Source of the DNA: a virus
Reading direction: 5' to 3' (one strand)
IMG/VR virus record: IMGVR_UViG_3300044786_000023
Span: 1-64,000 of that record
Length of the DNA stretch: 64,000 bases
Shown here: positions 3,357 to 64,000 of the stretch, piece by piece
Numbering within the stretch: position 1 is the stretch's first letter
Layout: each line of letters starts with the position of its first letter
The notes under the pieces: model-generated
Databases searched by the model: none
What the model was told of the DNA's origin: nothing
What the model saw: the letters and a program-made list of their open reading frames with translations, nothing else
Program-made: the position numbers and the translations under genes

Positions 3357-3365
3357 TAAAATTAA

Positions 3366-5690: not shown

Positions 5691-6247
5691 TAGGACTCCT
5701 TTCGGAGAGTTAGTTCATACGATACTTTGGGACTCTTGTCTTTTCTAAACTCGTAATAAGATCGAAGGGAGATATTTAATTTAACTAATCTTTCAATCCA
5801 TTTTCTATCCTCTGCCTCTTCTGCCCAATCTTTGATATGCTTTTTGAGCAGATTCAAGTCGCAATCAAAAATATCGGTCTTGCCCCAAACCTTCGCTTTT
5901 TCTGGCTTTCCCTTTTCTTTATACCAGACAACGATAATAGTGAAATCCTCTTTTTTGGATAGGGCATCAAACATAATTGTTTGTCCTTCAGGTACAAAGT
6001 ACGATTCCCGTTCTACTATTGTCGTTTTTCCGTTGACCGTTTTTAGTTCAACTTTGGTTTCTATCCGCTTAGTTTCAAGAATGAAGATACTGCCATTCCT
6101 TTCGATAATGCCATCTAAATCAGAGAATTTAATCTTACCGGGTAAACAGTCGTTAAAAATGTCGTAAGGCCATAGAGTACTGACAAAAACTTCCAGGTTT
6201 CTGATATTGCCAAGTTTTTCATTTAATGGACACTCAGGACAAATCAT
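5690..6247 (-). CDS. hypothetical protein with possible PD-(D/E)xK nuclease motif
   Basis: Track ORF. SDLDGIIERNGSIFILETK fits D...ExK. The function is tentative. Confidence 0.5.
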   Translation of the reverse strand: MICPECPLNEKLGNIRNLEVFVSTLWPYDIFNDCLPGKIKFSDLDGIIERNGSIFILETKRIETKVELKTVNGKTTIVERESYFVPEGQTIMFDALSKKEDFTIIVVWYKEKGKPEKAKVWGKTDIFDCDLNLLKKHIKDWAEEAEDRKWIERLVKLNISLRSYYEFRKDKSPKVSYELTLRKES

Positions 6248-7172: not shown

Positions 7173-7224
7173 TTGTAGTCCTTTCTGCAAAACAAAAAAG
7201 GTAGCACGCAACGAAGCGCCTACC

Positions 7225-7253
7225 TTGACATATTACTTAAAAAATGTTATGAT
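7225..7253 (+). promoter_or_regulatory. near-consensus sigma70 promoter TTGACA-17-TATGAT, antisense to the surrounding operon
   Basis: -35 at 7225-7230, 17-nt spacer, -10 at 7248-7253. Confidence 0.4.
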
Positions 7254-7259
7254 ATTTGT

Positions 7260-7335
7260 GAAGTGGGGCACTTTAAGACTCCTTTGACTTGAGACGAAGA
7301 ACCGACCGGGCCAGCTAAACTCAGTCGGTTTTTTG
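7260..7335 (+). ncRNA. candidate ~75-nt small RNA (promoter to terminator)
   Basis: Lies between the promoter at 7225-7253 and the hairpin AACCGAC(7300-7306)/GTCGGTT(7324-7330) plus T-run 7329-7334. Contains CTCCTTT (anti-SD-like). There is no plus-strand ORF here. Confidence 0.25.
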
Positions 7336-7361
7336 TTACCTCTATCTTACCACGATACGAG

Positions 7362-44043: not shown

Positions 44044-44226
44044 TTGGCGGTGGTAATCGCTTTATGTATATCTCTATTCATTGCTATTGGATACCTTCAT
44101 CTTTTTACAGATGACTTGGATATTATTCAGGATAAATTCAAGATAGAGATTTATAGAGCCGGGATTGCCCTAGTAATAATACGTGGTACATTATTTCTGA
44201 TTAGGGATTTATTACAATTATGGTAA
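44044..44226 (+). CDS. small membrane protein
   Basis: Track ORF with a non-ATG start. Confidence 0.35.
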   Translation: MAVVIALCISLFIAIGYLHLFTDDLDIIQDKFKIEIYRAGIALVIIRGTLFLIRDLLQLW

Positions 44227-44657
44227 TTCCTAATGAGAGATACTACCGAATCCTGGAGTGCATCCCTATTGCTTGCGTAGACGTTGCCATTATTGCCAGA
44301 GGCAGTGTCCTTCTAGTCAAGCGCAATGACCTCCCCGCTAAAGACGAATGGTGGCTGCCAGGTGGCAGGGTTTACAAAGGTGAGTTAATGAAGCAAACGG
44401 CTAAACGCAAAGCACTAGAGGAAGTGGGAATCGAGTGCCACATCGGGCCGATTATTCACACGGCTGAAACAATATTCCCTGATGGGCCAAATGGGATTCC
44501 TGTTCACAGCATTAACTCGTGCTTTATGCTTTATCCAGTGGGTGACTTTATAGTTAAGCTAGACAGTCATCACGATTCGTATGAATGGGCTAACCATATC
44601 TATGAAGGACTACATCCTTACGTGGTTAAATGTTTGTTGGGTGCGGGTATAGAATAA
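44220..44657 (+). CDS. Nudix hydrolase
   Basis: The Nudix box is GGRVYKGELMKQTAKRKALEEVGI. Confidence 0.8.
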   Translation: MVIPNERYYRILECIPIACVDVAIIARGSVLLVKRNDLPAKDEWWLPGGRVYKGELMKQTAKRKALEEVGIECHIGPIIHTAETIFPDGPNGIPVHSINSCFMLYPVGDFIVKLDSHHDSYEWANHIYEGLHPYVVKCLLGAGIE

Positions 44658-45170: not shown

Positions 45171-45324
45171 TTGTGCTAGATGTGGACAGAACCATGAGGA
45201 TTTAGAGTTTTTACTATTTGAGAATCCAATAGAGGATACCGATGGCACAGTATGGAATTATTGGTCTGTATGTCCTACCAACAATGAGCCAATACTGCTA
45301 AAGGTAAAACAGATTGATGATTAG
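45148..45324 (+). CDS. 58-aa zinc-ribbon-like protein
   Basis: Not in the track. GTG start. Carries CARCGQ...CPTNNE. Confidence 0.3.
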   Translation: MIKTTIHNCARCGQNHEDLEFLLFENPIEDTDGTVWNYWSVCPTNNEPILLKVKQIDD

Positions 45325-46441
45325 CATCATAACCCCGGCCTACATAGATACTATTGAAAAACTTGAATGGCTTAACGAGATGTTAGCCTCTGTCCGCACT
45401 CAGACTCTAGCTGAATGGGAAGTCATCATTATGGATGACGCATCACCCATGCCGATAAACCTACATGACTACGATCCGCGAGTTCGCACCTTGCGAATGG
45501 TGAATCGTAGCGGCCCAGCCTTATGTCGAAATACGGCCGTAGCCTTAGCCAGATACCAGGCCATCCTGCCCATTGACGCCGATGACGTGCTGCCTTCACC
45601 TGATATTCTAAACAAGCTTTATCAAGCGTGGCTAGAGGATAAGACAAAGATAATTTATGGTGACTTGCAACGACTAGAGGTATTCGAGGGTGAGTGGAAG
45701 AGGGGCAGAGTACACGAACTACCTGAGTATAAATTCACCCGGCCCGACTTTGGTATCAATGGCACGGTTCTTGATCCGGCTGGCACAATACCTGTAAGCG
45801 GCTTGCACTCAATTGAAACTCATCACAAGGCGGGCGGCTGGAAAGCCGAATTAGATGCTGGCTTGGAGGATGTAGAATACTGGGTAGCAGCGGGTAAAGC
45901 TGGTTGTTGTGGTAAGCACATTAGTGAGATTGTTTTGCTTTATCGCAGGCACGATGAAAGCCGTAGCTCTCTTTTGAGACGAAATAAACAAGAAACGAAC
46001 ATGCGGAATCGAATCCGCCAAATGCACCAAGATGTATACGAAGGGAGATACCCCATGGGATGTTGCGGAGGTGGTGCGGCTTATGTGCCACCAGAAACTT
46101 ACAATCAAGCAAGCGTGTCAGCGCCACTTACTCTGGATAAATATCCGGCTAGTGAAAAGGTGTGGGTTGAATATACCGGACAGAGACAGGGGAGTTTTGG
46201 CGTGGTAGGCCAGTTCACTAATTATCCTTACACGGTAGACGGCCCTAGCCACAAGATAGAAGTTCATGTTAACGACTTGCCAAAGTTCCGGCATTCAGGA
46301 CGCGGCGTTGATTTCAGAATAGGTGTACCAGCGCCAAACGGCTATGCGCCTCCGGTGGTGACGGGGCCGCAACCGTTTGAGGCACAAGCGCCGGAACTGG
46401 CACAGATTCTACAGTTAGACGAGGTGGCACTTGCTGCTTGA
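45314..46441 (+). CDS. family-2 glycosyltransferase with an unrecognised C-terminal domain
   Basis: Carries ISIITPAY...VIIMDDASP...PIDADDV. Confidence 0.7.
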   Translation: MMISIITPAYIDTIEKLEWLNEMLASVRTQTLAEWEVIIMDDASPMPINLHDYDPRVRTLRMVNRSGPALCRNTAVALARYQAILPIDADDVLPSPDILNKLYQAWLEDKTKIIYGDLQRLEVFEGEWKRGRVHELPEYKFTRPDFGINGTVLDPAGTIPVSGLHSIETHHKAGGWKAELDAGLEDVEYWVAAGKAGCCGKHISEIVLLYRRHDESRSSLLRRNKQETNMRNRIRQMHQDVYEGRYPMGCCGGGAAYVPPETYNQASVSAPLTLDKYPASEKVWVEYTGQRQGSFGVVGQFTNYPYTVDGPSHKIEVHVNDLPKFRHSGRGVDFRIGVPAPNGYAPPVVTGPQPFEAQAPELAQILQLDEVALAA

Positions 46442-49155: not shown

Positions 49156-50664
49156 ATGGCTGATGAACTATTACTAAAACGCGGACAGGGCAACGTGGAT
49201 GTCCAAATAGGAGGGCCCGGCAATAACTGGCAGTACCTTTCAAGCTGTGCGGCTATGACTGGCCCCGAAGTACCCTTTGGTGACACTGAAACGCGCTGGT
49301 GTCAAGACCCTAAAGTGGCTGGCGCTTTTCGGCGCTCTACCAAAATCCGTACTGCTCCAGATTTAATCACTTTTGATCTAACAACCAAGCTGAATAAGAT
49401 CAATCATCTTAAGCGGCTCAACTGTCCGTTCTCGCAGCGCGCCCGCTATGCCATCTGCGGTGAGCGTGAGGATGTGGCGAATTACGATCCGCTCATGCTG
49501 AATTATTGCAGCGTTGAGTTGAACTCTAAGTCTTACGAGGACTTGGTCATTACCGATCCTGGCAATGAAGATGAGATTATCATCACAGCCTCAGCCAGTG
49601 CGGATTATGAGTACATAACTGAGAAGATTACACCGGCTCGCACTGGCTCAGCAGCTACACTTGGCGACCAGCCGATTAACGATATTGAGTTTTGCGACTC
49701 ACCCGATTGTGGCGGGTACTGTGGCGATCCTAGCGATGGTTGTACGATTCAATTCGGTGTAACTGATGCGGATACCGGCCCATATGCCGCACCAAATTTG
49801 GTCAAAGGCGTCAAGAATCTAAACACAGGTGCTATTACTTGGAGCAATCTTCCTATTCTTGGCATAAATGGTAATGTCGAGAATATCGAGTGTGCGGGCA
49901 AGCGCATCGGTGTTACCTCCTCTACCGATGCTGTCTTTGCGTATAATGACGACCCGAATCAGGATCAGGATGAATGGAACGTCGTCGCCTTAACTCGCAC
50001 GCCTAGCACGAACCATAACGCGCTATTTGCACGAACTAGCCGGGAATGGTGGTTAGCTTGTAATGGTGGATATATCCTTAAATCGGTAGACGGCGGTATA
50101 AGCTGGAATGAGGTTCACTCAGCAACTATCACCACGCAGAACATTCTCAGCGTTTACGCTTATGACAAAGACTTAATTGTTGCCGGCGGCGCTGTTGGCG
50201 TGATGCTAATTTCCAAAGATGGTGGGCAGACGTGGGCTGATATTAGCGAGGTTGCTACCACAGCAGCCAGTATCCTTGACATCGTTATTCCTCCCAACCG
50301 AACGAAAGAAATTTACGTCGGTACGAATAATGGGCGTATCTTCCGAAGCACGAATCAAGGCGATACATTTAGCCGTGTCTCATTTGATGGTGACAGTGTG
50401 GGCACCGTAGATGACATCGACTTTTGCGGGCCATGCGCCGGTGATGTGATGTTCATTCTACATAATGACGCTGGGCCACGTGCGCGTATTCTGCGTGATT
50501 TAAGCGGCGGCGCGGGCGGTAGTGACATCGAAATCATAATGGACTACACGCAAGTTATTGGCGGCGGGATTGACCTAAATGCGATGGCTTGCTGTGGCGA
50601 GAATGAGTTAATTGCGGCTGGTGAGAATCAAGGTGGATTCCCAGTGGTGGTTAGAGTATCGTAA
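49156..50664 (+). CDS. probable major tail protein with C-terminal BNR/Asp-box beta-propeller
   Basis: Positioned before the chaperone pair. The Asp-boxes are SVDGGISW, SKDGGQTW (50212-50235) and STNQGDTF. Confidence 0.55.
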   Translation: MADELLLKRGQGNVDVQIGGPGNNWQYLSSCAAMTGPEVPFGDTETRWCQDPKVAGAFRRSTKIRTAPDLITFDLTTKLNKINHLKRLNCPFSQRARYAICGEREDVANYDPLMLNYCSVELNSKSYEDLVITDPGNEDEIIITASASADYEYITEKITPARTGSAATLGDQPINDIEFCDSPDCGGYCGDPSDGCTIQFGVTDADTGPYAAPNLVKGVKNLNTGAITWSNLPILGINGNVENIECAGKRIGVTSSTDAVFAYNDDPNQDQDEWNVVALTRTPSTNHNALFARTSREWWLACNGGYILKSVDGGISWNEVHSATITTQNILSVYAYDKDLIVAGGAVGVMLISKDGGQTWADISEVATTAASILDIVIPPNRTKEIYVGTNNGRIFRSTNQGDTFSRVSFDGDSVGTVDDIDFCGPCAGDVMFILHNDAGPRARILRDLSGGAGGSDIEIIMDYTQVIGGGIDLNAMACCGENELIAAGENQGGFPVVVRVS

Positions 50665-51453: not shown

Positions 51454-54400
51454 TTGGCCCTTCCGACTGTCGGCTTGGAAGCCGTTATCGCCAACTTACC
51501 CAAATTTGAACAGGGCGCTAAAACCATCACGCAAGCCTATGATGGTATCAATACTAAGGCTGATGCTGTCGGTAAAGTTACTGAGCGCATGGGACTTAAG
51601 TTTGATGAGGCTTCTAATCGTTGGCGTACAGCATCGGGTAAGTTTGCCTCAAATGCTGAAATAGCAGCAGCGGGTATTAACAAAGCTAAAGATGCGGCTG
51701 ACAAAACGGGCAAGAGTTTTGTTGACTTGGGTAGTATAGCTGGCAAAGCTGGCGGTCAGTTAGTTGGCTTGGGCAGTCACCTACTTAGCCTGGGTGCTAT
51801 TGCTGGTGGCGCAGCCTTAGCTGGCGTCACTGCGCTAGGCGCTGGCTTAGCTACGTTTGCCGTGGCAGGTATCAATAAAGCCATTGATTTAGACGCGCAA
51901 ATGGCGACGATTGCCGCTACGATGAATACCACCAAAGAGGCAGTCGGGCCACTTAAGGATTTAATCTTAGACCTCGCCCTTGACCCTAATCTCACGGTAA
52001 ACACAACTCAGGCGGCTGATGCGATTCAGTTATTAGCACAGAACGGCGTGACGGCAGCAGAGATCATGGATGGTGCTGCGGCGGCAACCGTGGCTTTAGC
52101 TAACGCAACAGGGGCACAATTCAGCACAGCGGCGGATGTCGCATCAGGTGTTATGAAGGTATTCAACATTAGAGCAGAGGACATGGGAACGGCTATTGAC
52201 GGCATAACTGGCGTGGTCAATACGAGTAAGTTTACCATAGATGACTTTAGTCAAGCGTTTGCGGCAGCGGGTGGCGTAGCTGCTGAAATAGGCATCTCAT
52301 TTGAGGACTTCAGCGCGGTTATAGCAGGGACAGCGACTAGCTTTAATAGTGGCTCGGATGCAGGTACTAGCTTTAAGACGTTATTGCAACGTCTTTCTAA
52401 TCCAACAGATGAGAATAAGGATTTAATGGAACAATATGGTATATCCCTATTCGATGCTGAAGGTAAAATGAAGCCATTTGCAGAGGTAGTAGAATCCCTG
52501 AACGCTGCTTTTACTGGTTTAACCGACGCACAAAAAGCACAATTGGCGGCGCAGATAGGCGGCGCTGATGCGGCCAGAGAAGTATTAGCTTTAGCCGGTA
52601 TGACCAAAGATGAGTTTGAGAAGTTATCAGGTAATGTTAATGACAGTGGGCAAGCTTTTAGAAGCGCGGCAACTCGCGTTGATTCTGTCAAGGGTGCTTT
52701 TGAGATATTCAGAGGGATAGTTGAGGCTGTCCAGATTCAGGTAGGTGATAAATTCCTGCCGATTCTTAGGGGGGTGACGGTGGGATTCACTGACCTAGCA
52801 AGCAAAGCAGGGCCGGTGGTAGTAGATTTCTTTGGCAGGATAGCTGCCAAGATAGCTGACTTGACTAAACTCTTTGACGAGAGAGGGCTGGCAGGGGTAT
52901 TGGCCCGATTTGGCTTTACGGGTTCTCTCAAATTCTTTAGGGAATTAAGTGGACTCTTTAGCGACATAACTGGCAAAGTACCATCACTGGAAGGTATTGG
53001 AGTTATCTTTAAAGATTTGGCTAAACAGGTGTTCCCTTTTCTGACAAAGGGAGTGATTTTCATTCGTGATTTTATCGCAACCGTAACCGATTTATTTACC
53101 ACGTTTCAATCAGGTGGTTTATTTGGTTCTCGCTCTGGCTCATTTGGCAGTGTGGGACTATTGGCAGCGTTGGGTATATCACCTGATATTATAACAACAA
53201 TTCAAACTATCTTCGATTCCATTACTGAAGCCGCAAATGCTTTTATGTCAGGCGGCTTATTTGGCAGTGTAGGGCTAGCGGGTGGTGATGTCAGTCAAAC
53301 AGGCGGCATACTGGAAATGTTAGGATTATCCGATGAAGCTGTTATAGGAATCCAAAACATATTTTTAGGGATAGTCGCAGCGGTTACAAACTTTGGCACA
53401 ACCTGGCAAGCTATCTGGCCTACTATATCCGCATCGGCACAAACAGCATGGATTCTTTTACAGGGTATTTTTAATGGCATAGTTGCAACTTTAACTCCTA
53501 CTATTGAACAGCTTAAAGTCTCGTTTGCTGGTGTAGGTGAGACATTTGCCAATTTGGGTATTACATGGGCAACCGTAGGGCCAGCATTGCTTCAGTCAAC
53601 AGGTATTGTTTTTGCAGCGATTGGGGCAATTATACTAGGTGTTATCTCGGTAGTTGTCTCATTAGTTGCGGCGATAGGCGCTGGCGTAGCCTCTATGATT
53701 ACTGTATGGAACGAACTTGTACCCAGTGTCATTACTGCTGTTAGTAGTCTAATGGTATTCCTAACGGGTGTGACAGAGATATTTAGTGGCATTATTACGG
53801 GTGACTGGACTCAAATATCTCAGGGATTCCAAATAGCATGGGAAGGAATCGCAGCAGGATTACCTGCTATAATTGCATCTATTGTTACTATATTCACTGG
53901 ACTGGTAACAACGATTAGTAAAACCATTAGTGGCTTCGTTACGGCCATGATTGGATTCTGGACGGGCTTATCTGAGACTCTTATCGGGCATTCAATCATA
54001 CCCGATTTAATCAATGGAATACTGGACTTATTTACCAAAACAAAATGGCTTGATATTGGCAAGGGTATCATTGATGGCATTATTAAGGGAATTAAGGAGA
54101 ATTCGGCTAAGGTTCTTGAATTGATTAAATCCCTTATGGGAGACCTTCTGTCAACGGCTGCTACCGCTATTGGCTACGGCTCACCTGCCGCTGAGTTTAT
54201 CCCACTTGGCGCAAGTATAGCGGAAGGCTTGACAGCCGGTATCAATTCAGGTGCGGGTGGCGTTATGGCTGCAATGGGTAATATCACTCAAGCGACTTTA
54301 GATTCACTACTTGGTGTTACTCGTGGCCTGGCCTCGACTAATAATGCTATCGGCGCGGCGGCTGATGATGTTGAGAAATTTCTTGATAGTATTGGATTAA

Positions 54401-55335
54401 AGGGGTCGAAGGGCGATGCTACATTAAAGATACTCAAAGATACTTTCAGAGCAAATGCTGATGAGATTCTAGGCGCTACTGATAGGGCAGAGAAGTTCAA
54501 AGAGGTGCTTGCTCGTACCGGTGTCAATTGGGAAAGGATTTTTGTCGGTGGTAGTGTTAACCCATTCGCTGGCAAGGGCGGCGGCATACTCTCCTTTTTT
54601 ATCAATGCTTTTGATGAGCGCAAAACTGAACTAGAAAAAGCTCAACAGCGGATGTTTATTCAAGCTGGCAAAACCGCACTCAGCATTGGTAACAAATTAA
54701 ATGACATTGTACAGGGTAGTATTGACATACTTGATACCAGGGTCGAGACGTTGCAAGAGTTAGTTGATTCCGGTTTAGAGAGTGTTAATTTCGAGGGGAT
54801 GATTATCAGCGCGGTGCAAGCACAGGATTTACTCAATGCTGCGCTACAGGAACAAGCCGATATTCAAGATGACATTTTGCAACTTAAGCAGAATGAACAG
54901 AAGTTAAGCTTCCTTGAAAAGCAGCTTTCTTTAGTTGAGACGCTTAACGCTGCTGGCTTGAATGTACAGGATATTTTGGGTGGCATCTCGCTCGGTCTGG
55001 ATGCCAGTATACCGGACATGATAGAAGCCACAAACCGCTTGGTTATGGCGCTGATAAATCAAGTCAATGAGGATTTGCAACTTGGCTCACCTTCTAAACT
55101 TATGGCGAAAAAGGGCATGCAAACCGGACAGGGTTTTGTTGAAGGACTTATGGCGCAAATACCCAATATAACAAATGCAATGAAGCAAGCTATAGTAGGG
55201 CCAGTTAGTGGGCCGGTGCTGAGTGGTGGGAGTAGTTCACGAGTAGTTAATAACAACTTTAACATGGCAGTGAATACGGGCGCGAGTCCGCAAAATGTCA
55301 TGGCGCAATTTGAAATTGCAAGGGCAATGGCCTAA
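51454..55335 (+). CDS. tail tape measure protein
   Basis: 1293 aa, Ala/Gly-rich helical. TP901-type core motifs are present (TTQAADAIQLLAQNGVTAAEI). TTG start with SD GAGG. Confidence 0.9.
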   Translation: MALPTVGLEAVIANLPKFEQGAKTITQAYDGINTKADAVGKVTERMGLKFDEASNRWRTASGKFASNAEIAAAGINKAKDAADKTGKSFVDLGSIAGKAGGQLVGLGSHLLSLGAIAGGAALAGVTALGAGLATFAVAGINKAIDLDAQMATIAATMNTTKEAVGPLKDLILDLALDPNLTVNTTQAADAIQLLAQNGVTAAEIMDGAAAATVALANATGAQFSTAADVASGVMKVFNIRAEDMGTAIDGITGVVNTSKFTIDDFSQAFAAAGGVAAEIGISFEDFSAVIAGTATSFNSGSDAGTSFKTLLQRLSNPTDENKDLMEQYGISLFDAEGKMKPFAEVVESLNAAFTGLTDAQKAQLAAQIGGADAAREVLALAGMTKDEFEKLSGNVNDSGQAFRSAATRVDSVKGAFEIFRGIVEAVQIQVGDKFLPILRGVTVGFTDLASKAGPVVVDFFGRIAAKIADLTKLFDERGLAGVLARFGFTGSLKFFRELSGLFSDITGKVPSLEGIGVIFKDLAKQVFPFLTKGVIFIRDFIATVTDLFTTFQSGGLFGSRSGSFGSVGLLAALGISPDIITTIQTIFDSITEAANAFMSGGLFGSVGLAGGDVSQTGGILEMLGLSDEAVIGIQNIFLGIVAAVTNFGTTWQAIWPTISASAQTAWILLQGIFNGIVATLTPTIEQLKVSFAGVGETFANLGITWATVGPALLQSTGIVFAAIGAIILGVISVVVSLVAAIGAGVASMITVWNELVPSVITAVSSLMVFLTGVTEIFSGIITGDWTQISQGFQIAWEGIAAGLPAIIASIVTIFTGLVTTISKTISGFVTAMIGFWTGLSETLIGHSIIPDLINGILDLFTKTKWLDIGKGIIDGIIKGIKENSAKVLELIKSLMGDLLSTAATAIGYGSPAAEFIPLGASIAEGLTAGINSGAGGVMAAMGNITQATLDSLLGVTRGLASTNNAIGAAADDVEKFLDSIGLKGSKGDATLKILKDTFRANADEILGATDRAEKFKEVLARTGVNWERIFVGGSVNPFAGKGGGILSFFINAFDERKTELEKAQQRMFIQAGKTALSIGNKLNDIVQGSIDILDTRVETLQELVDSGLESVNFEGMIISAVQAQDLLNAALQEQADIQDDILQLKQNEQKLSFLEKQLSLVETLNAAGLNVQDILGGISLGLDASIPDMIEATNRLVMALINQVNEDLQLGSPSKLMAKKGMQTGQGFVEGLMAQIPNITNAMKQAIVGPVSGPVLSGGSSSRVVNNNFNMAVNTGASPQNVMAQFEIARAMA

Positions 55336-55350: not shown

Positions 55351-57936
55351 ATGCGAAAGTTACTAGCAGTTATTCTGTTTTTGATTCTAGTCTCTACCAG
55401 CTATGCACAAGAACCGCATAAAGTATATTTACCAATTATCATGAGACTTAAAGAAGATATAAAAAACTCGTGGCAGATAGTTAAGCCGATTAGCACAGTT
55501 AATAGCGTGCTTAACCCTTCCGCCGAATTAACCGGTAATTTTGCGGCTGTCGGTAGTGCTACTATCACCCGTGTTACTACCTATCAAAAGTACGGTCTCA
55601 ATTCCTACCGTGTGCAAACCACCGCCACTAATACGGGGCTATCGCTAACTACTGGCACGCTGACAAATGCCACTCATTGGATGACGGCGCGGATACGTGG
55701 CAGATTACCCCGCGAGTTACGCTTCTCAATTGGCCCTGATTCCAAGAAAGCCATCTTACTTGAAAAGATAGATGATGCCTGGGCTTTGTATGGTGCGCTG
55801 TTTGGTGCATCGGAATCGAATGGCAGGACAGCGGCAAGCATCACTCAGTTCGGCACAGGCAGTGGTGACTTTTATGTTGATGGGATTCAAGTCGAAGCAC
55901 AGCCAGACTGGACTACTTATGTTGACGGTACGCAAGAGGGATGCGCCTGGGATGGTGTGGATCACGCCAGCACCTCTAGCCGTAGTGGTGAAAGTAGCGC
56001 GGGCGGTATACCGCAGGACTTGTATCAAGAGTACAAGTTCTTTGTGACCAAGATAGTTGGCGCGGGTGCATCTACGCAAGAGTTAAACGTAGACTCCTAC
56101 GCACTTCTACCCGGTGGTGAGATGAACAGCTTAAAGGTTCAGTCTCGCCAGTTTACGCTTATCGGCAAGTTCATCACCGATACTGAACTTGAGTTACACG
56201 ATAACCGGCAAGAACTTATCAAGCTGCTAAAAACTAGCACGCCAGACCAACCGCTACGGTTGCGCTTTAACAATGCACGAGTAGAGAAAGAAATAAGCGT
56301 CTTTTATCAGGGCGGCTTAGAAGGTGACTTAGCCGCGTTCTATGGCAGTTTTGAGTCGATTGAGGATAATCAGTGGGGTGAGACAAAAGAGTTTGTAGAG
56401 AAAGCCGCGATTCAATTCTTAGCACCTGACCCGTATTGGTATGAGGTGGGGGAGAGTGCGGCGAGTCTGAATAATGCGTCAAGTAATGACTTATACACTG
56501 AACCGGATACAATTGATACTGCCACGTTTAGACTAGTGGCAGGTAGGTTAAGAAGCACCGGGCAATGGGATGCGTTAGGGCCGCCGAATGTGGCAGGAAC
56601 GTACTTCGCAGTTAATGCTATTGCTGAAGATGCTACTTATGTTTATATAGGTGGCAATTTCCAGAATTTCGATAATATAGCCAATGCTGATTATATTATT
56701 CGGTATAATAAACAGACAGGAGTTTATTCGGCTTTAAGCACGGGAATGGACGGCCCTGTTAATACTTTGGCTATTGGCCCGAACGGAATATTATATGCCG
56801 GAGGTAGCTTTACCTCCGCCGGAGGAGTAGCGAATACACTCCGTATTGCTTCTTGGGATGGTGTGACTTGGGCCGCTTTGGGTACAGGAGCAAATAATGT
56901 TGTTCGTGCTTTGGTTGTTGGTCAAAATGGGCTACTCTTCGCCGGAGGCAGCTTCACTACTATTGGCGGCGTTGCGGCTAATAGGATTGCTTCCTGGGAT
57001 GGTATAATATGGACTGCTTTGAGCACAGGAATGAATCAGCCTGTTTTTGCCCTGACCATTGCAGTAGATGGAATATTATATGCTGGAGGTAGCTTCACTA
57101 CCGTTGGGGGAGTAGCAACTAACTATATTACTTCCTGGAATGGTTCAGCCTTTTCATCATTGGGTAGTGGTATGAATAATACAGTCACTTCCCTAGCTGC
57201 CAATCCATCAGGAATTTTATACGCTGGAGGGATATTTACTTCTGCAGGGGGTAATGCGGCAGCACGTGTTGCCTCCTGGAATGGTACAGCATGGTTGGCA
57301 TTGGGAAGTGGGGCAGACGATGAGGTTCAGGCCCTAGCTATTGGTCAGGATGCAATGTTATATGCGGGAGGTCAGTTTACAACGGCAGGTGGTATTAATT
57401 TAGCTGACAGGGTAGCGCGTTGGAATGGCTATTCCTGGGCACACCTGGATCTCGACTTACCTGGGTCGCCTATTGTGACTGCTATTTTAGCTAGTAAGTA
57501 TGTTGACCCAGTTATCAAGCAAAAGTACAACTTATTCTTAGGATTCGATACCACTGGCACGGGCTATTTTGGTGGTAAATTTACCGTTACCAACAGTGGC
57601 AATGTGCCTGCTTTCCCCTTAATAATTTACTTCCGTTCAGGTGGTACATTCGCTATTGTTGAGACGCTGAAGAACGAACGAACGGGTAAAGAACTGCTGT
57701 TTGATTACTCTCTGTTGAGTGGCGAGACGCTAGGCATTGATTTAACACCGACTAACAAGACTATTATATCTAGCTTTTTCGGGCCTTCGTTGCGGGCGAT
57801 TCTGGCAAACTCGGACTTTGGCTCATGGGCTTTGCTACCGGGTGATAATGATGTGACAACGTTTGTCAGTGTAAGTGGTGGGCCGACGCTGACCGCATAT
57901 TTGCTGTGGCGAGATACCTATGACAGTTGGGATTAA
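55351..57936 (+). CDS. distal tail protein (Dit) with CBM-like domain and inserted six-blade beta-propeller
   Basis: Positioned after the TMP. The C-terminal Dit-like motif is TNSGNVPAFPLIIYF...LKNERTGKELLF. Six ~47-aa repeats of the form LYAGGSFTxxGGVxxxxIASWxGxxWxxLGxG span about 56650-57450. Confidence 0.65.
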   Translation: MRKLLAVILFLILVSTSYAQEPHKVYLPIIMRLKEDIKNSWQIVKPISTVNSVLNPSAELTGNFAAVGSATITRVTTYQKYGLNSYRVQTTATNTGLSLTTGTLTNATHWMTARIRGRLPRELRFSIGPDSKKAILLEKIDDAWALYGALFGASESNGRTAASITQFGTGSGDFYVDGIQVEAQPDWTTYVDGTQEGCAWDGVDHASTSSRSGESSAGGIPQDLYQEYKFFVTKIVGAGASTQELNVDSYALLPGGEMNSLKVQSRQFTLIGKFITDTELELHDNRQELIKLLKTSTPDQPLRLRFNNARVEKEISVFYQGGLEGDLAAFYGSFESIEDNQWGETKEFVEKAAIQFLAPDPYWYEVGESAASLNNASSNDLYTEPDTIDTATFRLVAGRLRSTGQWDALGPPNVAGTYFAVNAIAEDATYVYIGGNFQNFDNIANADYIIRYNKQTGVYSALSTGMDGPVNTLAIGPNGILYAGGSFTSAGGVANTLRIASWDGVTWAALGTGANNVVRALVVGQNGLLFAGGSFTTIGGVAANRIASWDGIIWTALSTGMNQPVFALTIAVDGILYAGGSFTTVGGVATNYITSWNGSAFSSLGSGMNNTVTSLAANPSGILYAGGIFTSAGGNAAARVASWNGTAWLALGSGADDEVQALAIGQDAMLYAGGQFTTAGGINLADRVARWNGYSWAHLDLDLPGSPIVTAILASKYVDPVIKQKYNLFLGFDTTGTGYFGGKFTVTNSGNVPAFPLIIYFRSGGTFAIVETLKNERTGKELLFDYSLLSGETLGIDLTPTNKTIISSFFGPSLRAILANSDFGSWALLPGDNDVTTFVSVSGGPTLTAYLLWRDTYDSWD

Positions 57937-58800
57937 ATGTCAAAGTTAAGTGTGATTATCCCAAGTAGAAATGAAAAGTTTCTACCCCAAACTATAGATG
58001 ACATATTCAAGAAGGCTACAGACCCTATCGAAGTCATCTGTGTACTTGATGGGTACTGGCCCAATCCTCCCCTGAAGGAATACCCGAATCTAATCACCAT
58101 TCACCGCTCAACGCCTCAAGGCATGAGAGCGGGTATCAATGCGGCGGCGGCTATTGCTAAGGGGAAGTACTTGATGAAATGCGACGCTCATTGCCTATTC
58201 GCTGAAGGTTTTGATGAAGTATTAAAAGCCGACTGTGCCGACAACTGGATTATCATTCCGCGTCGGTACAGCCTTGACGCTGAAAATTGGCAGCGATGTG
58301 AGGATAAAGAACCAATTGACGCGATGCATTATTTTTGGCCGTATGAACATCCCGACGATTTGGGATTGCACGGTAGACCTTGGATGGAGCGCAGCAGGGA
58401 GCGCAAGCATATCCCAATTGATGAGGATGTAACGTTTCAGGGTAGCTGTTGGCTTATGCACGCTGAACATTTTTATAAACGACTAGGGGGATTAAGCGAA
58501 GTTGGATTCCGTACTTTTATGGCAGAGCCGCAAGAGATCGGGCTAAAAACTCAGCTTGGGCATTGGGAAGGTAAAGTAATGCGGAACAAGAAAACTTGGT
58601 ACAGTCACCTCCATAAAGGCAAGACTTATGGGCGTATGTATTTTATGAGTTCGTCTGAACGCACAGAAGGCAATGCTTTTTCATTTGATTTCTTTTGGCG
58701 GAATCGATGGACAGAGCGGGCGCATGATCTCGAATGGTTAATTGATAAATTTCCACTTCAACCCGGTTGGCCTGAAAACTGGCGGGACTATGCTCATTAG
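57937..58800 (+). CDS. family-2-fold glycosyltransferase with DxH motif (ppGalNAc-T-like)
   Basis: Carries LSVIIPSRNE...VICVLDG...YLMKCDAHCLFAEGF. Confidence 0.75.
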   Translation: MSKLSVIIPSRNEKFLPQTIDDIFKKATDPIEVICVLDGYWPNPPLKEYPNLITIHRSTPQGMRAGINAAAAIAKGKYLMKCDAHCLFAEGFDEVLKADCADNWIIIPRRYSLDAENWQRCEDKEPIDAMHYFWPYEHPDDLGLHGRPWMERSRERKHIPIDEDVTFQGSCWLMHAEHFYKRLGGLSEVGFRTFMAEPQEIGLKTQLGHWEGKVMRNKKTWYSHLHKGKTYGRMYFMSSSERTEGNAFSFDFFWRNRWTERAHDLEWLIDKFPLQPGWPENWRDYAH

Positions 58801-59449
58801 CTTCTGTGTCCCCATTCATAACCGACTTCACGACCTAAAGATAACAATACCTTACCTCATTACGGCGGCCCAAGCCTCGCCCCCTATTGAGATTGTCGTT
58901 TTAGACTATGGCTCAACTGATGGTTTGGCAGACTACGCAAAAGGGCTAGATTGTGTCACTTATCACAGATACGAAAGTGATTATTTCCACAAAGCCCACG
59001 CCTTTAACTTGGTGATTCTAGTCTCAAAAGGCAAGTACTTTGTCCTTCTAGGCGCTGACGCTTACCCGCATAGAGATTACATAAAGACTATTCGTGAACT
59101 AATCACACAGGGTTGCATTTGGATGCGAGCCAGTGAGCTATGCGGGATTTTCGCTTGCCAGCACGGGGAATTTATTAACGCTGGCGGTTATGATGAACGG
59201 TTTGAATTTTACGGGCCGGAGGATAGGGATTTAGATTTACGCTTGCAACGGCGTGGTAGTGAGTTTGGATTAGTTCCTAACGGGTTAATGAGCGTCATTC
59301 CAACGTCCGATGAGGACAAAGTAAAAAACTTTCGTCTGAAATTATCCAAGCAAGGGATGGGCAGGTTAATGCGGCCTATCTTTGAAGAGAATATCGCCAA
59401 TGGCGTTTTAGTGGCTAATCAGGGGAGAGAGTGGGGGCAGTGGATCTAA
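58790..59449 (+). CDS. family-2 glycosyltransferase
   Basis: The track ORF starts at 58742. ATG 58790 gives MLISFCVPIHNR...IVVLDYGSTDG...LGADAYP...YGPEDRDLDLRL. Confidence 0.7.
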   Translation: MLISFCVPIHNRLHDLKITIPYLITAAQASPPIEIVVLDYGSTDGLADYAKGLDCVTYHRYESDYFHKAHAFNLVILVSKGKYFVLLGADAYPHRDYIKTIRELITQGCIWMRASELCGIFACQHGEFINAGGYDERFEFYGPEDRDLDLRLQRRGSEFGLVPNGLMSVIPTSDEDKVKNFRLKLSKQGMGRLMRPIFEENIANGVLVANQGREWGQWI

Positions 59450-61041
59450 GCGTACTTATCCCTAGCAGGAATGAGGAGTTCTTACTTAATACCGTTAATG
59501 ACGTGTTAGCCAACATTCAGGCTGATACTGAGATTATTTGCGTACTTGACGGAAGCTGGCCTATTGAACCAATCCCAGATAGCCCTCGCATAACCCTAAT
59601 TCATCACCCTACATCCATCGGCCAGCGTGCAGCAATCAATGAAGCGGCGCGGGTATCTACTGCCAAGTATGTAATGAAATTTGATGCTCATTGTGCTGTT
59701 GCCCCTGGTTTTGATAAGGTACTGCTAGAAGATATGCAACCCGATTGGACACAAGTACCCATCATGCGAAACTTACACGTATTCGACTGGGTATGTGATT
59801 GTGGGCATCGAATGTACCAGAGGCCAACGCCGGAGTCATGTCCAAATTGCAATGGACAAATGACAAAAGAGATAGTCTGGATTGCCAAGACTAATCCTCA
59901 AAGTAAAGCATATTGCTTTGATTCTACCCCTCACTTTCAGTACTTTGGAGAGTTTAGCAAGCGGCCTGAAGGCAAAGGCGACTTAACGGAGTCCATGAGC
60001 TTGCAAGGTTCATGCTTTATGATGACCAGAGAGAGATACCTAGAGTTGGAGGTATGCGACGAATCTATTGGCAGTTGGGGCAGTCAAGGAATCGAAGTCG
60101 CCTGTAAGACGTGGCTATCGGGTGGTAGGGTGATAGTCAATCATCGAACATGGTACGCACATCTGTTTAGGAAGTATGGCGATTTCGGCTTTCCGTATCC
60201 GTTAAGCGGTAAGGAAACGGAATATGCTAAAGAACAAGTTAGAGAGTTATTCTTTGAGAATAGATGGCCTAAGCAAATTAAGCCACTATCCTGGCTGGTT
60301 GAAAAGTTTTGGCCCGTACCAGGATGGACTGATGAGGACCTGAAACGAATAGCGCCAAGTAAAGCAGCAATTTATTATACCGACAATCGGCTCGATTCTA
60401 ACATAATGCAAGTTTGCCAGAATCAACTTAAGCAAAGCTTAAACGGTCACAAGCTGGTATCCGTCTCACTCAAACCACTAGACCTTGGCGAGAACATCAC
60501 ACTAGATTTAGAGCGCGGGTATCTAACTATGTTCAAGCAGATTCTGGCTGGCTTAGAGGCTTGCATGGCTGATGTCGTTTTCTTATGCGAGCATGACGTT
60601 TTGTACCACCCTTCACACTTTGATTTTACCCCACCTGATAGAACCAAGATTTATTACAACGCAAATGTATGGCACTTAAGAGTATCGGACGGTCACGCCG
60701 TTTATTACACGGCTAAAAGGACAAGCCAACTATGCGCCTATCGAGATGTACTAATCAGACATTATCGCAAACGTGTGGCCTTAGTTGAGCAAGACGGCTT
60801 CAGTCGCAAGATGGGTTTTGAGCCTGGAAGTCATAACCGCACTGAGCGAGTGGACGATCTGAAGTCTGATACTTGGCAGAGTGAGCATCCCAATGTGGAC
60901 ATAAAGCATGACCAAAATTTGACACCGGCTCGGTGGAAACAAGAGGCTTTTAGAGATAAAAGAAATTGCCAGAATTGGCAAGAGTCCGATGAGATACCCT
61001 ATTGGGGGGTAACTAAAAATATATTTATGGAGGTGATTTGA
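59431..61041 (+). CDS. family-2-fold glycosyltransferase with DxH motif plus a C-terminal domain; paralog of 57937
   Basis: Carries LSVLIPSRNE...IICVLDG...YVMKFDAHCAVAPGF. A Cys4 insertion (CDCGH...CPNC) is present. Confidence 0.75.
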   Translation: MGAVDLSVLIPSRNEEFLLNTVNDVLANIQADTEIICVLDGSWPIEPIPDSPRITLIHHPTSIGQRAAINEAARVSTAKYVMKFDAHCAVAPGFDKVLLEDMQPDWTQVPIMRNLHVFDWVCDCGHRMYQRPTPESCPNCNGQMTKEIVWIAKTNPQSKAYCFDSTPHFQYFGEFSKRPEGKGDLTESMSLQGSCFMMTRERYLELEVCDESIGSWGSQGIEVACKTWLSGGRVIVNHRTWYAHLFRKYGDFGFPYPLSGKETEYAKEQVRELFFENRWPKQIKPLSWLVEKFWPVPGWTDEDLKRIAPSKAAIYYTDNRLDSNIMQVCQNQLKQSLNGHKLVSVSLKPLDLGENITLDLERGYLTMFKQILAGLEACMADVVFLCEHDVLYHPSHFDFTPPDRTKIYYNANVWHLRVSDGHAVYYTAKRTSQLCAYRDVLIRHYRKRVALVEQDGFSRKMGFEPGSHNRTERVDDLKSDTWQSEHPNVDIKHDQNLTPARWKQEAFRDKRNCQNWQESDEIPYWGVTKNIFMEVI

Positions 61042-61042
61042 A

Positions 61043-61300
61043 ATGGCAGTTTTACAGGATGTTGATAGATTTGATGTTTGGGCTGAAGCGATGCGTGAAT
61101 GGAGTAGGGAAGCGCAGACGGTTGGGGTAAATAAAGCCGATCTCAGGGTGGCAGTAAATGCTATCGACGATTGGGTAAATATAAACGCTTCCGCCTTCAA
61201 TGCGGCCATTCCGCAGCCGGCACGTGCTGCACTAACCGCACCACAAAAAGCATTGCTGCTCATGTACGTCATTCAAAAACGATCTGCGAAGGGGAACTAA
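61043..61300 (+). CDS. hypothetical protein
   Basis: Track ORF. Confidence 0.5.
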   Translation: MAVLQDVDRFDVWAEAMREWSREAQTVGVNKADLRVAVNAIDDWVNINASAFNAAIPQPARAALTAPQKALLLMYVIQKRSAKGN

Positions 61301-61303
61301 CTG

Positions 61304-61798
61304 ATGACTACTACCCGATGTATAGGAACGCCCTATTCTGCTGAATTTCCAGCAGCTAATTTTCCGCAATTGCAACTGGTCAACCGTCGTCCAGTTTTAT
61401 CTTTTGATGCGGCCACAGATGAAACGACTTACTGGACCTTCGTCGCTTGGCAGGGGCTAACCGGCACAATGACTCTTATTATTAGTTACATGATGGCTTC
61501 TGCTGTAGCTGACGAAGTTGGCTTTCAGGCTCAAATTGAGGCCGTTACCGATGGAGACGCGACCGACCTTGACGCAACAACCTCATTTGATAGCGTCAAT
61601 AATTCAGCCTCTGTCACCGTACCGGCTACAGCCGGCTATATTGACCAAATTTCAATCACTATGACTAATCAAGACAGTATCGCAGTGGGGGATTATTTCC
61701 GACTTTCGGTGAATCGTGATGCGGATGGATCGGCCATCACCGATGATGCGACGGGGGACTGTCACATACTCGCAGTTGAATTGAGGGACGCAGCATAA
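61304..61798 (+). CDS. hypothetical virion protein
   Basis: Track ORF. Confidence 0.5.
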   Translation: MTTTRCIGTPYSAEFPAANFPQLQLVNRRPVLSFDAATDETTYWTFVAWQGLTGTMTLIISYMMASAVADEVGFQAQIEAVTDGDATDLDATTSFDSVNNSASVTVPATAGYIDQISITMTNQDSIAVGDYFRLSVNRDADGSAITDDATGDCHILAVELRDAA

Positions 61799-64000
61799 AT
61801 GGCAGTTCGCTTCAATGCGTCAGGTGAATACCTACAATTGACAAGCGGGGTATTCAATAATAATACCGCCTATTCGTACTGTTTTTGGTTTTTCTATCCG
61901 ACAACTTGGACCGCAAACAGGGTTGTGGTATCTGTTGATGCGGGTGTATATGATGCCAATTTTGATTTTGTCTTTACTCGCCCTGATGGATTTCTGGCTA
62001 TCCATGATAGTATTGGTGGATACGGTGAAAGCTCAAGCGCGTTCGCGGTAAACACTTGGTATCATTTGGCCGTTGTTCGCTCATCGGCCACAAATATAAA
62101 GTTGTATATCAATGGTGTTCTTGAAGCAACAGATACGGGGGATGTTTCGGCCCGGCCTGTGGCTACTCGGTTCACATTAGGCAGTCAAAGTGCCAGTCCA
62201 TACGACTCGTGGGATGGCCGGATGGCTTATTGTAAAGCCTGGACCGCAGAACTGACCGCTGCCGAAGTTTTACAGGAAATCTATGTAATCAGACCGGTCA
62301 AATTCGATAATCTTTATGGATTTTGGCCGCTCTTTCCTGGCGCGGCGGAACGACTGATTGATTACTCAGGCAACGGGCGCAATCTGACGGCTGGCGGCAC
62401 GCTAACCGATGAAGACCCGCCGCCGGTCAGCTGGGGAGCGGGTCTATCTTATTCTCAATTCGTAGCAGGTGGTAGCCCCAGTGCCTCAGTATCTCCCAGC
62501 GTTTCCCCTTCAGCCAGCGTCAGCCCGTCCGTTTCGCCTTCGGTCAGTCCCTCCGTCAGTGTTAGTCCGTCTGCCAGCGTAAGTCCGAGCGCTTCGATTT
62601 CGCCATCGGCATCCATCAGTCCAAGCGCATCTGTTAGCCCTAGTGTTAGCCCATCAATATCACCAAGCGCATCGGTTTCGCCCTCCGCTTCTGTCTCACC
62701 TTCAGTTAGTCCATCAATTTCTCCTTCTGCTTCAGTTAGTCCAAGTGCGTCGCTTTCGCCATCAGCATCCCTGAGTCCGAGTGCCAGTGTTAGTCCTTCG
62801 ATATCGCCTTCGGTATCTCCCAGTGCCAGTGTATCGCCGAGTGCCTCAGTAAGTCCGAGTGCTAGTGTCTCACCTAGTGTCTCGCCTAGTGTAAGTCCTT
62901 CTGCCAGTGTTAGCCCGTCAGCATCGGTATCTCCTTCAATCTCGCCATCGGCTTCGGTTTCGCCATCGGCGTCGGTTAGCCCGTCCGTTTCGCCATCCGC
63001 CTCAATCAGTCCTTCAGCCAGTGTTTCGCCTAGTGCTAGTGTTTCGCCATCTGTTAGCCCATCTGCCAGTATATCCCCCTCTGCCTCGGTTAGCCCGTCG
63101 GTTTCACCATCTGCTAGCGTGAGTCCATCTACTAGCGTCTCACCAAGTGTTAGCCCCAGTGCTAGCGTTTCGCCATCGGCGTCGGTATCGCCTTCAGCCA
63201 GTGTTTCACCTAGTGCTAGTTCACCTTCAGCCTCAATTAGTCCTTCTGCTAGTGTTTCCCCCAGTGCCAGTGTAAGCCCATCGGCTAGTGTCTCGCCTTC
63301 AGTTAGTCCATCTGCTAGCGCCTCGGCGTCGGTTAGTCCGAGTCCCAGTCCAGGGCCAGCCGGGACTGCTATTCGTATTTCTCCTGTTAGTAGAGTTGGT
63401 GCAGGTTCCTATGAGATATGGCTGACAAGTGACACGGGTTCACGGTTGGCACATCTGACTACTATCACGGCCCTTACCGCTTCACGGGTAGTCAATGGCG
63501 TAGGCTGGTTTGCGTTGAAAATGCCGCTGTCATTCAACATTAACATGATAGCTGTAGATAGGATGATTCAAATATGGCGACAACCACGCGGTGGGGTGAT
63601 GTCGCTGTGGCGGCCTTACTTTTTGCGCAAATGGGTATTTTCGACCGAGGGGAGTAAAGAAATTGTGACGATGGAGGGACCATGCGTAAACGATGTGCTG
63701 CGGCGTAGAATCATAGCGGCTTATAGTGGTTCAGCGCAAGCCAGTAAAACAGATTTTGCCGATGATATGATGAAGGAAGTTGTAACTCAGAGTATAGCCG
63801 ATGGAGTTGCACCTGTGCCAGCAGCAGGTACGCGGGTATGGAGTAATTTCAGCATACAAACTGATGCAAGCGCCGGGCCGACAATTACCAAGTCGTTTCC
63901 ATTTGATACGCTTCTAAGTGGCTCAGGCAACGGTGTACTACCCGTATTAGCGCAGGCAGCGCGCGAGGCTGGTACTGAGGTGTTTTTTAGTGTTGAACCT
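61799..64000 (+). CDS. LamG/ConA-like lectin domain, ~293-aa Ser/Pro repeat, Tal-like tail protein (3' end beyond window)
   Basis: Not in the track (no stop in the window). I translated it in frame from ATG 61799 to 64000 without a stop. WYHLAVVRSSATNIKLYINGVL is LamG-like. Residues encoded at 62474-63352 are SPS[AVI]S[VIL]/SPSV repeats. The C-terminal part (YEIWLTSDTGSRLAHL...VDRMIQIWRQP...) resembles siphovirus Tal/Gp37-like N-termini. Confidence 0.75.
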   Translation, partial: MAVRFNASGEYLQLTSGVFNNNTAYSYCFWFFYPTTWTANRVVVSVDAGVYDANFDFVFTRPDGFLAIHDSIGGYGESSSAFAVNTWYHLAVVRSSATNIKLYINGVLEATDTGDVSARPVATRFTLGSQSASPYDSWDGRMAYCKAWTAELTAAEVLQEIYVIRPVKFDNLYGFWPLFPGAAERLIDYSGNGRNLTAGGTLTDEDPPPVSWGAGLSYSQFVAGGSPSASVSPSVSPSASVSPSVSPSVSPSVSVSPSASVSPSASISPSASISPSASVSPSVSPSISPSASVSPSASVSPSVSPSISPSASVSPSASLSPSASLSPSASVSPSISPSVSPSASVSPSASVSPSASVSPSVSPSVSPSASVSPSASVSPSISPSASVSPSASVSPSVSPSASISPSASVSPSASVSPSVSPSASISPSASVSPSVSPSASVSPSTSVSPSVSPSASVSPSASVSPSASVSPSASSPSASISPSASVSPSASVSPSASVSPSVSPSASASASVSPSPSPGPAGTAIRISPVSRVGAGSYEIWLTSDTGSRLAHLTTITALTASRVVNGVGWFALKMPLSFNINMIAVDRMIQIWRQPRGGVMSLWRPYFLRKWVFSTEGSKEIVTMEGPCVNDVLRRRIIAAYSGSAQASKTDFADDMMKEVVTQSIADGVAPVPAAGTRVWSNFSIQTDASAGPTITKSFPFDTLLSGSGNGVLPVLAQAAREAGTEVFFSVEP
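62474..63352 (+). repeat. degenerate 12/18-nt coding tandem repeat (Ser-Pro-Ser-x-Ser-x)
   Basis: Read directly from the sequence. All six Ser codons are interleaved, so the protein repeat is far more regular than the DNA repeat. Confidence 0.8.

Follow-up and report, generated by a model that had tools for sequence, protein, structure and literature searches.

The window analyzed here, a stretch of 64,000 nucleotides (positions 1-64,000 of the IMG/VR record IMGVR_UViG_3300044786_000023), ends within a long open reading frame (ORF) on the plus strand (61799..64000), whose complete product of 909 amino acids (aa) is composed of a LamG domain, a Ser/Pro repeat, and a tail-tip hub (Tal) domain. 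The genes of the region are arranged in the order tape measure protein (TMP), distal tail protein (Dit), three glycosyltransferase (GT) genes, two small genes, and Tal, and in the majority of some 60 related loci the Tal gene follows Dit within 100 nt. Homology identifies the ORF as the Tal protein of a siphovirus-type phage that has not been cultivated. The hub domain is complete, and the LamG domain and the stalk form an unusual N-terminal extension of it.

Architecture of the long Tal protein

The ORF starts with an ATG at position 61799, which overlaps the TAA that ends the preceding 164-aa gene (ATAAATG), and its frame stays open for 734 codons, up to the end of the window, where it is truncated. 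Other assemblies of the region were recovered via exact identity to the upstream 164-aa protein (p164), and the complete 909-aa ORF is identical and unbroken in three independent ones, namely L001 (positions 10496-13225; a 71.3-kb contig of Logan SRR35361832), L002 (positions 1265-3994; JGI 3300044499), and L003 (positions 2027-4756; Logan SRR35362068). No stop codon or frameshift separates the LamG and repeat part from the Tal part in any of the three, so that the single uninterrupted ORF proposed by the first-pass annotation stands and an assembly artefact or frameshift is rejected.

The JGI gene caller called the C-terminal 335 aa of this ORF alone (L002:1265-3994 and L006) and placed small antisense ORFs within the Ser repeat. 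The antisense ORFs were rejected as real genes, the sense frame being the one that links two conserved domains, and together with the split call they probably explain why the long ORF is absent from the earlier annotation track. Proteins of the long-repeat Tal type are probably under-annotated in general.

The LamG/ConA-like module covers aa 1-225 (61799..62473, plus strand) and ends in the conserved motif DYSGNGRNLT..GTLTDEDPPPVSWG. The Laminin_G_3 family (Pfam ID PF13385) matches aa 8-157 with 68.6 bits against a gathering cut-off of 27.6 (E = 8.9e-19), which bears out the ConA/LamG-like domain assigned to the N-terminus at first pass, and the domain gave no significant sequence match in the PDB. 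By analogy with its family, the domain may bind carbohydrates.

The alternating-Ser repeat (aa 226-518; 62474..63352, plus strand), characterized by composition, unit parsing, codon diversity, and Tandem Repeats Finder, is exactly 293 aa long and contains 147 Ser, 56 Pro, 42 Val, and 36 Ala residues and a single Thr. It can be parsed into 56 units, being SPSASV (25 copies), SPSV (13), SPSASI (5), SPSI (4), and a few others, and Ser occupies 125 of the 147 positions of one alternating phase, in agreement with the earlier description of about 293 residues of SPSASV/SPSV repeats with Ser at every second residue. All six Ser codons are used in the repeat DNA, no exact repeat at the DNA level exceeds 20 nt, and Tandem Repeats Finder reports two-copy patches only. 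The mixed codons and the lack of long DNA repeats indicate that the periodicity is maintained at the protein level and is the product of neither a recent DNA expansion nor an error of assembly. The reading as a contingency locus, or as a tandem repeat that is hypervariable at the DNA level, was rejected, there being no long DNA repeats and all copies being identical. Polypeptide N-acetylgalactosaminyltransferases (ppGalNAc-Ts) favor Pro at positions -1, +1, and +3 relative to the acceptor Ser, and every Ser of the SPSASV/SPSV units has a Pro at one of these positions. The repeat is the sole Ser/Thr/Pro-rich tract within a real ORF of the 64-kb window and is predicted to be an O-glycosylated tether.

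The Tal/baseplate-hub domain begins at aa ~538, with its N-terminal part (aa 538-734) inside the window (63410..64000, plus strand), and extends to aa 909 past the window end. The Sipho_Gp37 family (Pfam ID PF14594) matches aa ~538-909 over 362 of its 370 profile positions (E = 5.5e-21), and the domain also matches the minor tail protein family phrog_538. More than 430 relatives were found, mostly hub-only proteins of 372-380 aa, and several hub relatives additionally carry PF06605. The Foldseek search with the AlphaFold model of an 86%-identical hub-only relative, P0003, with a predicted local distance difference test (pLDDT) score of 76.6, yields 21 PDB hits at probability 1.0, with matches to the HFTV1 tail, Mu gp44, 80alpha Tal, Listeria gp18, VgrG, and the Bxb1 and Douge tail tips. 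The region had been described as a domain resembling siphovirus Tal N-termini; the hub identity is supported by PF14594 and Foldseek, but the domain is not merely an N-terminal Tal fragment and forms a complete hub at the C-terminus of the protein. An internal start giving a hub-only protein was rejected, as no in-frame ATG, GTG, or TTG is found just upstream of the hub, so that every Tal copy should carry the LamG domain and the repeat.

The glycosyltransferase cassette

The GT trio that had been noted next to the repeat corresponds to three genes with the PF00535 domain at 57937-61041. GT_A (57937..58800, plus strand; PF00535 and family profile) is a soluble GT27-like, that is, ppGalNAc-T-like, protein with a CDAHC DxH motif. 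GT_B (58790..59449, plus strand; PF00535, PF10111, and PF02709) is a generic GT2 protein with a Glyco_transf_7C-like (beta4GalT-like) C-terminal part and a candidate elongating enzyme. GT_C (59431..61041, plus strand; PF00535, profile, and AlphaFold2 model) is composed of a GT27-like N-domain (aa 1-~305), which is paralogous to GT_A, and a second domain at the C-terminus (aa ~310-536).

The single-sequence search of the PDB with GT_C returned ppGalNAc-Ts as the only matches, via the Gal/GalNAc-T motif region. Family profiles were built from 28 homologues of GT_C and 31 of GT_A. The GT_C profile matches GalNAc-T1 with an E value of 2.2e-13, its top 14 PDB matches all being ppGalNAc-Ts, and the best match of the GT_A profile is PGANT9 (E = 1.8e-10), with GalNAc-T4 also found; the GT_A match spans profile positions 3-231, which is nearly the whole catalytic domain, and other GT2 enzymes match the N-terminal half of GT_A equally well. 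With the GT_C structure model (pLDDT 90.7), the top 37 Foldseek matches in the PDB are all ppGalNAc-Ts (E = 6.8e-16), followed at rank 38 by the first non-GT27 match, the chondroitin polymerase K4CP with its two GT-A domains, over 580 columns.

In the motif alignment, FDAHC of GT_C and CDAHC of GT_A correspond to LDAHCE, WGSQGIE to WGGENLE, and AHLFR (within WYAHLFR of GT_C) to GHVFR. The residues at the DxH motif, the HVFR His, and the WG..G.E motif of GalNAc-T are invariant or nearly so across the homologues, with D85, H87, W216, G217, and H244 being invariant in the 28 homologues of GT_C and D83, H85, and H224 in those of GT_A. The profiles for both proteins and the model for GT_C point to GT_A and the GT_C N-domain as homologues of polypeptide O-glycosyltransferases of a GT27-like type. 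No transmembrane or hydrophobic segment is found in GT_A, GT_B, or GT_C, and the enzymes are therefore expected to act in the cytoplasm.

GT_B matches the N-terminal half of chondroitin synthase (E = 3e-6) and is optional in related cassettes, being present only in L013, L077, and L078. The C-domain of GT_C (60361-61041) has a conserved FxEHDVLYHPSHF motif (EHD) and no significant match in the PDB sequence search, and it recurs as at least one separate gene in many related cassettes (for example, L078:4558-5711, L090:5396-7989, and L092:6-1204). The K4CP alignment of the model suggests that aa ~310-536 form a second GT-A domain.

The tblastn search with GT_C (E ≤ 1e-5) against 50,697 GenBank phage records gave no match, and the fold search of its model in BFVD returned only uncharacterized GTs, which came from uncultured phages and giant viruses. 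In metagenomes, GT_C has more than 6,100 relatives, which are labeled at most "glycosyltransferase family 2."

Co-occurrence of glycosyltransferases and serine-rich repeats

Within the lineage, we compared twelve distinct Tal relatives with an N-terminal extension. A Ser-rich linker is present in all three Tal genes with GTs between Dit and Tal and in none of the nine without them (Fisher P = 0.0045). The three GT-bearing loci are the window, L013, and L037. L013 encodes the same GT trio (86-88% identity) as the window and a Tal protein whose N-terminal domain differs and whose SPSxS linker is ~80 aa long. L037 (positions 5118-11140) has a GT1-family gene and a GT2 gene, both unrelated to the GTs of the window, between Dit and a 938-aa Tal, whose N-terminal region carries a CBM96 domain and a poly-Ser run of ~60 residues before the hub. 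The PDB sequence search with the GT1-family protein gave nothing significant. Judged from these sequences, L037 is an independent version of the same design, with nonhomologous GTs. The nine GT-free extensions are attached to the hub by short linkers of the VVPPTPTPTD type. Several near neighbors share 77-90% hub-core identity with the Tal protein of the window, which indicates a recent joint gain or loss of the cassette and the linker.

A further 41 IMG/VR contigs encode homologues of GT_A and GT_C (41-60% identity), mostly arranged as a GT_A...GT_C cassette. We chose viral loci of at least 12 kb by GT homology and used Tal loci as controls. Alternating-Ser repeat ORFs were found in 21 of the 26 GT-chosen loci and in 1 of the 33 control loci (P about 1e-9). 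The 21 positive loci have one to four repeat ORFs each, usually directly beside the cassette, and three of the five repeat-negative loci end within ~1.5 kb downstream of the GT. The repeat proteins, 49 after removal of redundancy, comprise 14,886 repeat residues with 49.5% Ser and 13.9% Pro, with a median repeat length of 255 aa and the longest repeat reaching ~1,000 aa. The carriers vary, including Tal (in the window), a DUF2460 protein, a double-LamG protein, and members of phrog_14065 and phrog_15511, and the repeat is constant.

For the reverse direction, viral stretches were chosen solely by a DNA pattern for [ST]P[ST]A[ST]V[ST]P[ST]A[ST]V[ST]P[ST], and a GT27-like gene was scored at E < 1e-10. 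Among the matches listed, a GT27-like gene is present in 40 of 118 stretches, on the same strand as the repeat in 40 of 40 cases and at a median distance of 1.3 kb, and, again among the matches listed, in 24 of the 55 stretches of at least 10 kb. Across 65 Tal loci, L013 is the only one with a GT27-like gene. The association in both directions, seen in viral contigs unrelated to one another, the varied carriers, and the nonhomologous parts of L037 make a functional link between the GTs and the repeat the simplest reading of these sequence data.

The sole positive control locus, L052, encodes a 477-aa Ser/Thr-rich ORF (positions 1677-3110) with runs such as SSSSSSSSSTTSSSTSSSS, upstream of tail genes. 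No GT27-like gene is found in the 12.8 kb of L052 examined, the search being confined to the GT27-like type.

A proposed glycosylated tether and its possible function

Starting from the domain identities, the ORF integrity, the GT27 homology, and the genomic co-occurrence demonstrated above, we propose that the protein is a tail-tip hub carrying a lectin on a tether that is O-glycosylated by the adjacent GTs, a reading to which we assign a probability of roughly 0.65 on the sequence evidence. Tal proteins are trimers. The hub domain would cap the tail tube beneath Dit, and each of the three Tal copies in a virion would present the N-terminal LamG domain on the 293-residue Ser/Pro linker. Before or during tail assembly, the GT cassette located just upstream would O-glycosylate the linker Ser residues in the cytoplasm of the host, with up to ~440 of them available per virion. 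We infer a division of labor in which GT_A and the N-domain of GT_C may place the first sugar on the polypeptide Ser, and GT_B and the second domain of GT_C may extend the glycan. Dense glycosylation is predicted to stiffen and extend the linker and to protect it from proteases, giving a mucin-like tether with a length of ~70-100 nm at 0.25-0.35 nm per residue. For scale, the length of a tail follows the tape measure at ~0.15 nm per residue, and the 1293-aa TMP would give a tail of ~190 nm. The tethered LamG lectin could sample host surface glycans far from the tip and mediate the first, reversible attachment. The mucin-like, glycosylated stalk presenting a lectin at the tail tip had been predicted at first pass; the GT27 homology, the pairing within the lineage, and the two-way co-occurrence support it, and the glycosylation itself is still a prediction.

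Several points weigh against this proposal, which is drawn from homology and gene neighborhood. The identity to GT27 enzymes is just 17-20%, so that the donor sugar and the acceptor type are not transferable. The ricin-type lectin domain (carbohydrate-binding module [CBM] family 13, CBM13) and the membrane anchor of true ppGalNAc-Ts are absent, with GT_A stopping after the catalytic domain, and we therefore use the term GT27-like for GT_A and GT_C and do not regard them as strict GT27 members. About two-thirds of the pattern-chosen loci, among the matches listed, have no GT in the short stretch examined, and the repeat may thus not always need a GT27-like enzyme. The co-occurrence counts (3/3 versus 0/9, 21/26 versus 1/33, and 40/118) are uncorrected for shared ancestry. 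The phage encodes at least five GTs, two of which are further genes not of the GT27-like type (41904-43658, GT2 plus Glyco_trans_1_2; and 45314-46441, GT2), and it may therefore glycosylate other targets too. The confidence of the Tal model is moderate, with low Foldseek TM-scores of ~0.3, and the hint at a host is limited to the nearest genome-embedded relatives, which are found in contigs of Anaerolineales/Chloroflexota metagenome-assembled genomes.

The repeat could instead be left without modification and act as a flexible spacer, much as the Pro-Thr (PT) linkers of cellulases act as entropic tethers, with the GTs modifying host envelope glycans, other virion proteins, or DNA. A linker role needs no sugars, and relatives attach their N-terminal modules via short, plain Pro/Thr linkers without GTs; the two additional GT genes elsewhere in the phage and the 78 of 118 repeat-chosen loci that have no GT27-like gene in the stretch examined (among the matches listed) fit this explanation as well. 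It does not account, however, for the tight association of GTs and Ser linkers in both directions, on the same strand and ~1.3 kb apart (among the matches listed), nor for their joint acquisition among Tal genes with 77-90% core identity. Furthermore, the closest solved GT homologues act on Ser/Thr of polypeptides and not on lipids or DNA, and a Ser content of 50%, strictly alternating despite scrambled codons, exceeds what a spacer needs, so that we consider a plain spacer unlikely. We see still less reason to favor an ordered fiber, in which the three repeat chains of the Tal trimer would form a silk-like or beta shaft with one all-Ser face and any glycans would be secondary. The strict period of two residues, in which the serines are separated by small hydrophobic residues (A, V, I, and L), in a carrier that is expected from the Tal fold to be trimeric, would suit such a fiber, but the Pro content of 19%, with a Pro at intervals of 4-6 residues, disfavors regular beta-sheets, the unit lengths of 4 and 6 are irregularly mixed, and the same repeat type is found in many unrelated proteins and at protein ends.

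An origin of the long ORF from low-complexity misassembly or from the fusion of two genes, with the repeat not being translated within Tal, is in line with the ORF having been left uncalled by one gene caller (JGI). We give it hardly any credence, since the identical 909-codon ORF was assembled from differing samples with differing assemblers, two conserved domains are fused in frame, the codon usage is diverse without long DNA repeats that could mislead an assembler, and L013 has the same architecture with a different N-terminal domain.

Extended beyond the window, the reading of the repeat as a glycosylated tether points to a sugar coating of tail proteins that would be common among phages and has so far gone undescribed. 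We consider it an even chance that many uncultivated tailed phages have a self-contained mucin-type O-glycosylation, in which soluble GT27-like GTs are paired with alternating-Ser/Pro repeats of up to ~1,000 residues in diverse tail proteins, the outcome here being three lectin-tipped tethers of ~70-100 nm. If this is true, the more than 6,000 relatives listed as generic GT2 would make up a large enzyme family that has so far lacked an annotation, recognizable by a simple signature in its sequence and with a protein as its predicted acceptor, and long low-complexity ORFs missed by gene callers and annotators would be accounted for. It would furthermore explain how the tail tips of siphophages could capture a host over a long range under the protection of glycans, and the soluble, cytoplasm-active polypeptide O-glycosyltransferases with their minimal repeat acceptor could become tools for bacterial glycoengineering. 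Mucin-type enzymes would then have abundant relatives in prokaryotic viruses, opening the evolutionary question of their relation to eukaryotic GT27.

Comparison with known systems

Serine-rich repeat (SRR) adhesins of Gram-positive bacteria, such as GspB, Fap1, and PsrP, have a glycosylated stalk and the dedicated GTs GtfA and GtfB. The Tal protein of the window resembles them in having hundreds of alternating-Ser residues adjoining dedicated cytoplasmic GTs and a binding domain on the stalk, the glycosylation being predicted here. Its units, in contrast, are SPSASV/SPSV rather than SAS[TVE], with a Pro every 4-6 residues, no GtfA/B-type GT4 pair is found among the five GT genes of the window, and the protein has neither a signal peptide (the N-terminus is MAVRFNASGEY) nor an LPXTG motif, accessory Sec genes not having been searched for. 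Its C-terminus is a Tal hub, and the repeat is carried by a tail protein of the virion. An assignment to the SRR adhesins was rejected, as the GT4 pair, the signal peptide, and LPXTG are all missing, and the analogy with SRR adhesins drawn at first pass is thereby reduced to a functional likeness, of which the long alternating-Ser region near GTs remains. L037, with its GT1-family gene and poly-Ser run, is somewhat closer to the SRR systems in enzyme class.

The enzymes find their closest parallel in the eukaryotic mucin-type O-glycosylation and not in the SRR adhesins. The phage enzymes share with the metazoan and apicomplexan GT27 ppGalNAc-Ts the GT-A fold, the D-x-H motif for Mn2+ binding, the third His ligand, and the WG..G.E motif, and both systems have several paralogous initiating enzymes encoded together and a long Ser/Pro-rich tandem-repeat acceptor, which is a prediction for the phage. 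The phage enzymes differ from GT27 not only in their 17-20% identity and in lacking the type II anchor and the ricin/CBM13 domain but also in the different second domain of GT_C, and they would act in the cytoplasm of a prokaryotic host. The phage repeat is nearly pure Ser, with a single Thr among its 293 residues, in contrast to the Thr-rich mucins.

In lactococcal and streptococcal siphophages, the Tal and "evolved" Dit proteins carry CBMs for the recognition of host glycans. The window shares with them a lectin or CBM on the hub of the TMP-Dit-Tal module, and its Dit has a propeller-like insertion. To our knowledge, Tal extensions described so far are C-terminal and rigid, whereas the module of the window is N-terminal and attached via a low-complexity repeat of 293 aa, with the GT genes splitting the usual Dit-Tal pair.

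Giant viruses glycosylate their own structural proteins with virus-encoded enzymes. In mycobacteriophages, phage GTs glycosylate the C-termini of capsid and tail-tube subunits, with immune shielding being the proposed role, according to PMC12619734 and PMC10877033, which report the work of Freeman et al. 2023 (Cell Host Microbe 31:1216). Compared with these phages, the window would be alike in encoding GTs for the phage's own structural proteins that act in the host cytoplasm, as predicted here, but the target would be a long internal repeat of the tail-tip hub and the proposed role that of a lectin tether. Since GT_C has no match in the 50,697 GenBank phage records, which we assume to include the mycobacteriophages, the enzymes are not detectably related.

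The literature search gave nothing relevant on GT27 enzymes of phages, on phage tail proteins of a serine-rich or mucin-like kind, on tail fibers with O-glycans, or on the peptide SPSASV, and no cultured phage or paper with this GT-repeat system was found in the collections searched. The first-pass view that such a stalk is undescribed in phages has to be narrowed, as virion glycosylation in general is known (PMC12619734), but the enzyme family, the acceptor type, and the location are new.

The p85-p164-LamG module and neighboring genes

The LamG module has 57 homologues, nearly all of which are stand-alone proteins of ~245 aa that terminate just past the conserved DYSGNGRNWT..GTLTDEDPPPVSWG motif. 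The two small genes in front of Tal are p85 (61043..61300, plus strand), which travels with p164 and LamG, and p164 (61304..61798, plus strand), which lies directly upstream of LamG and is translationally coupled to it. Two unrelated viral contigs (L231:6682-7925 and L232:7268-8723) have a p164 homologue, with 71% identity in L231 and 63% in L232, followed by a stand-alone LamG gene (~245 aa), and in L232 a p85 homologue at the same position (51% identity) also precedes LamG. By these sequence comparisons, p85-p164-LamG is a conserved gene module. We thus regard the window as having two mobile units between Dit and Tal, the GT cassette and the p85-p164-LamG module, the last gene of the module being joined to Tal via the repeat. 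L232 carries SU10-like portal and capsid genes.

The megablast search of 55351-64000 against GenBank phages gave no match, and tblastn with the Tal core and LamG returned marginal hits only, namely a minor tail protein of Curtobacterium phage Teagster (28.6%) and two unannotated gut contigs, with no cultured phage being close. No tRNA genes were found. The Pfam and PHROGs searches of repeat-bearing proteins and head and tail genes were mostly without a match.

The TMP (51454..55335, plus strand) has 1293 aa and matches PF10145 (E = 1.2e-41) and phrog_1533. Just upstream of the tape measure region, a BNR/sortilin-like repeat protein of 502 aa is encoded at 49156-50664, and a NUDIX hydrolase gene (44220-44657), also upstream of the TMP gene, is located between the two extra GT genes. 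Dit (55351..57936, plus strand) is an 861-aa protein with a beta-propeller-like insertion and matches to PF22768, PF05709, PF12768, phrog_33, and phrog_202. The start of the Dit ORF (55351-55420) encodes a signal-peptide-like segment, MRKLLAVILFLILVSTSYAQEP, which is unexpected in a tail protein, whose assembly takes place in the cytoplasm, and the hydrophobic character of the segment is retained in the diverged relatives L012, L013, L016, L025, L028, and L037. A related phage (L027:5048-9994) has two tandem Dit paralogues of 800 and 842 aa ahead of Tal.

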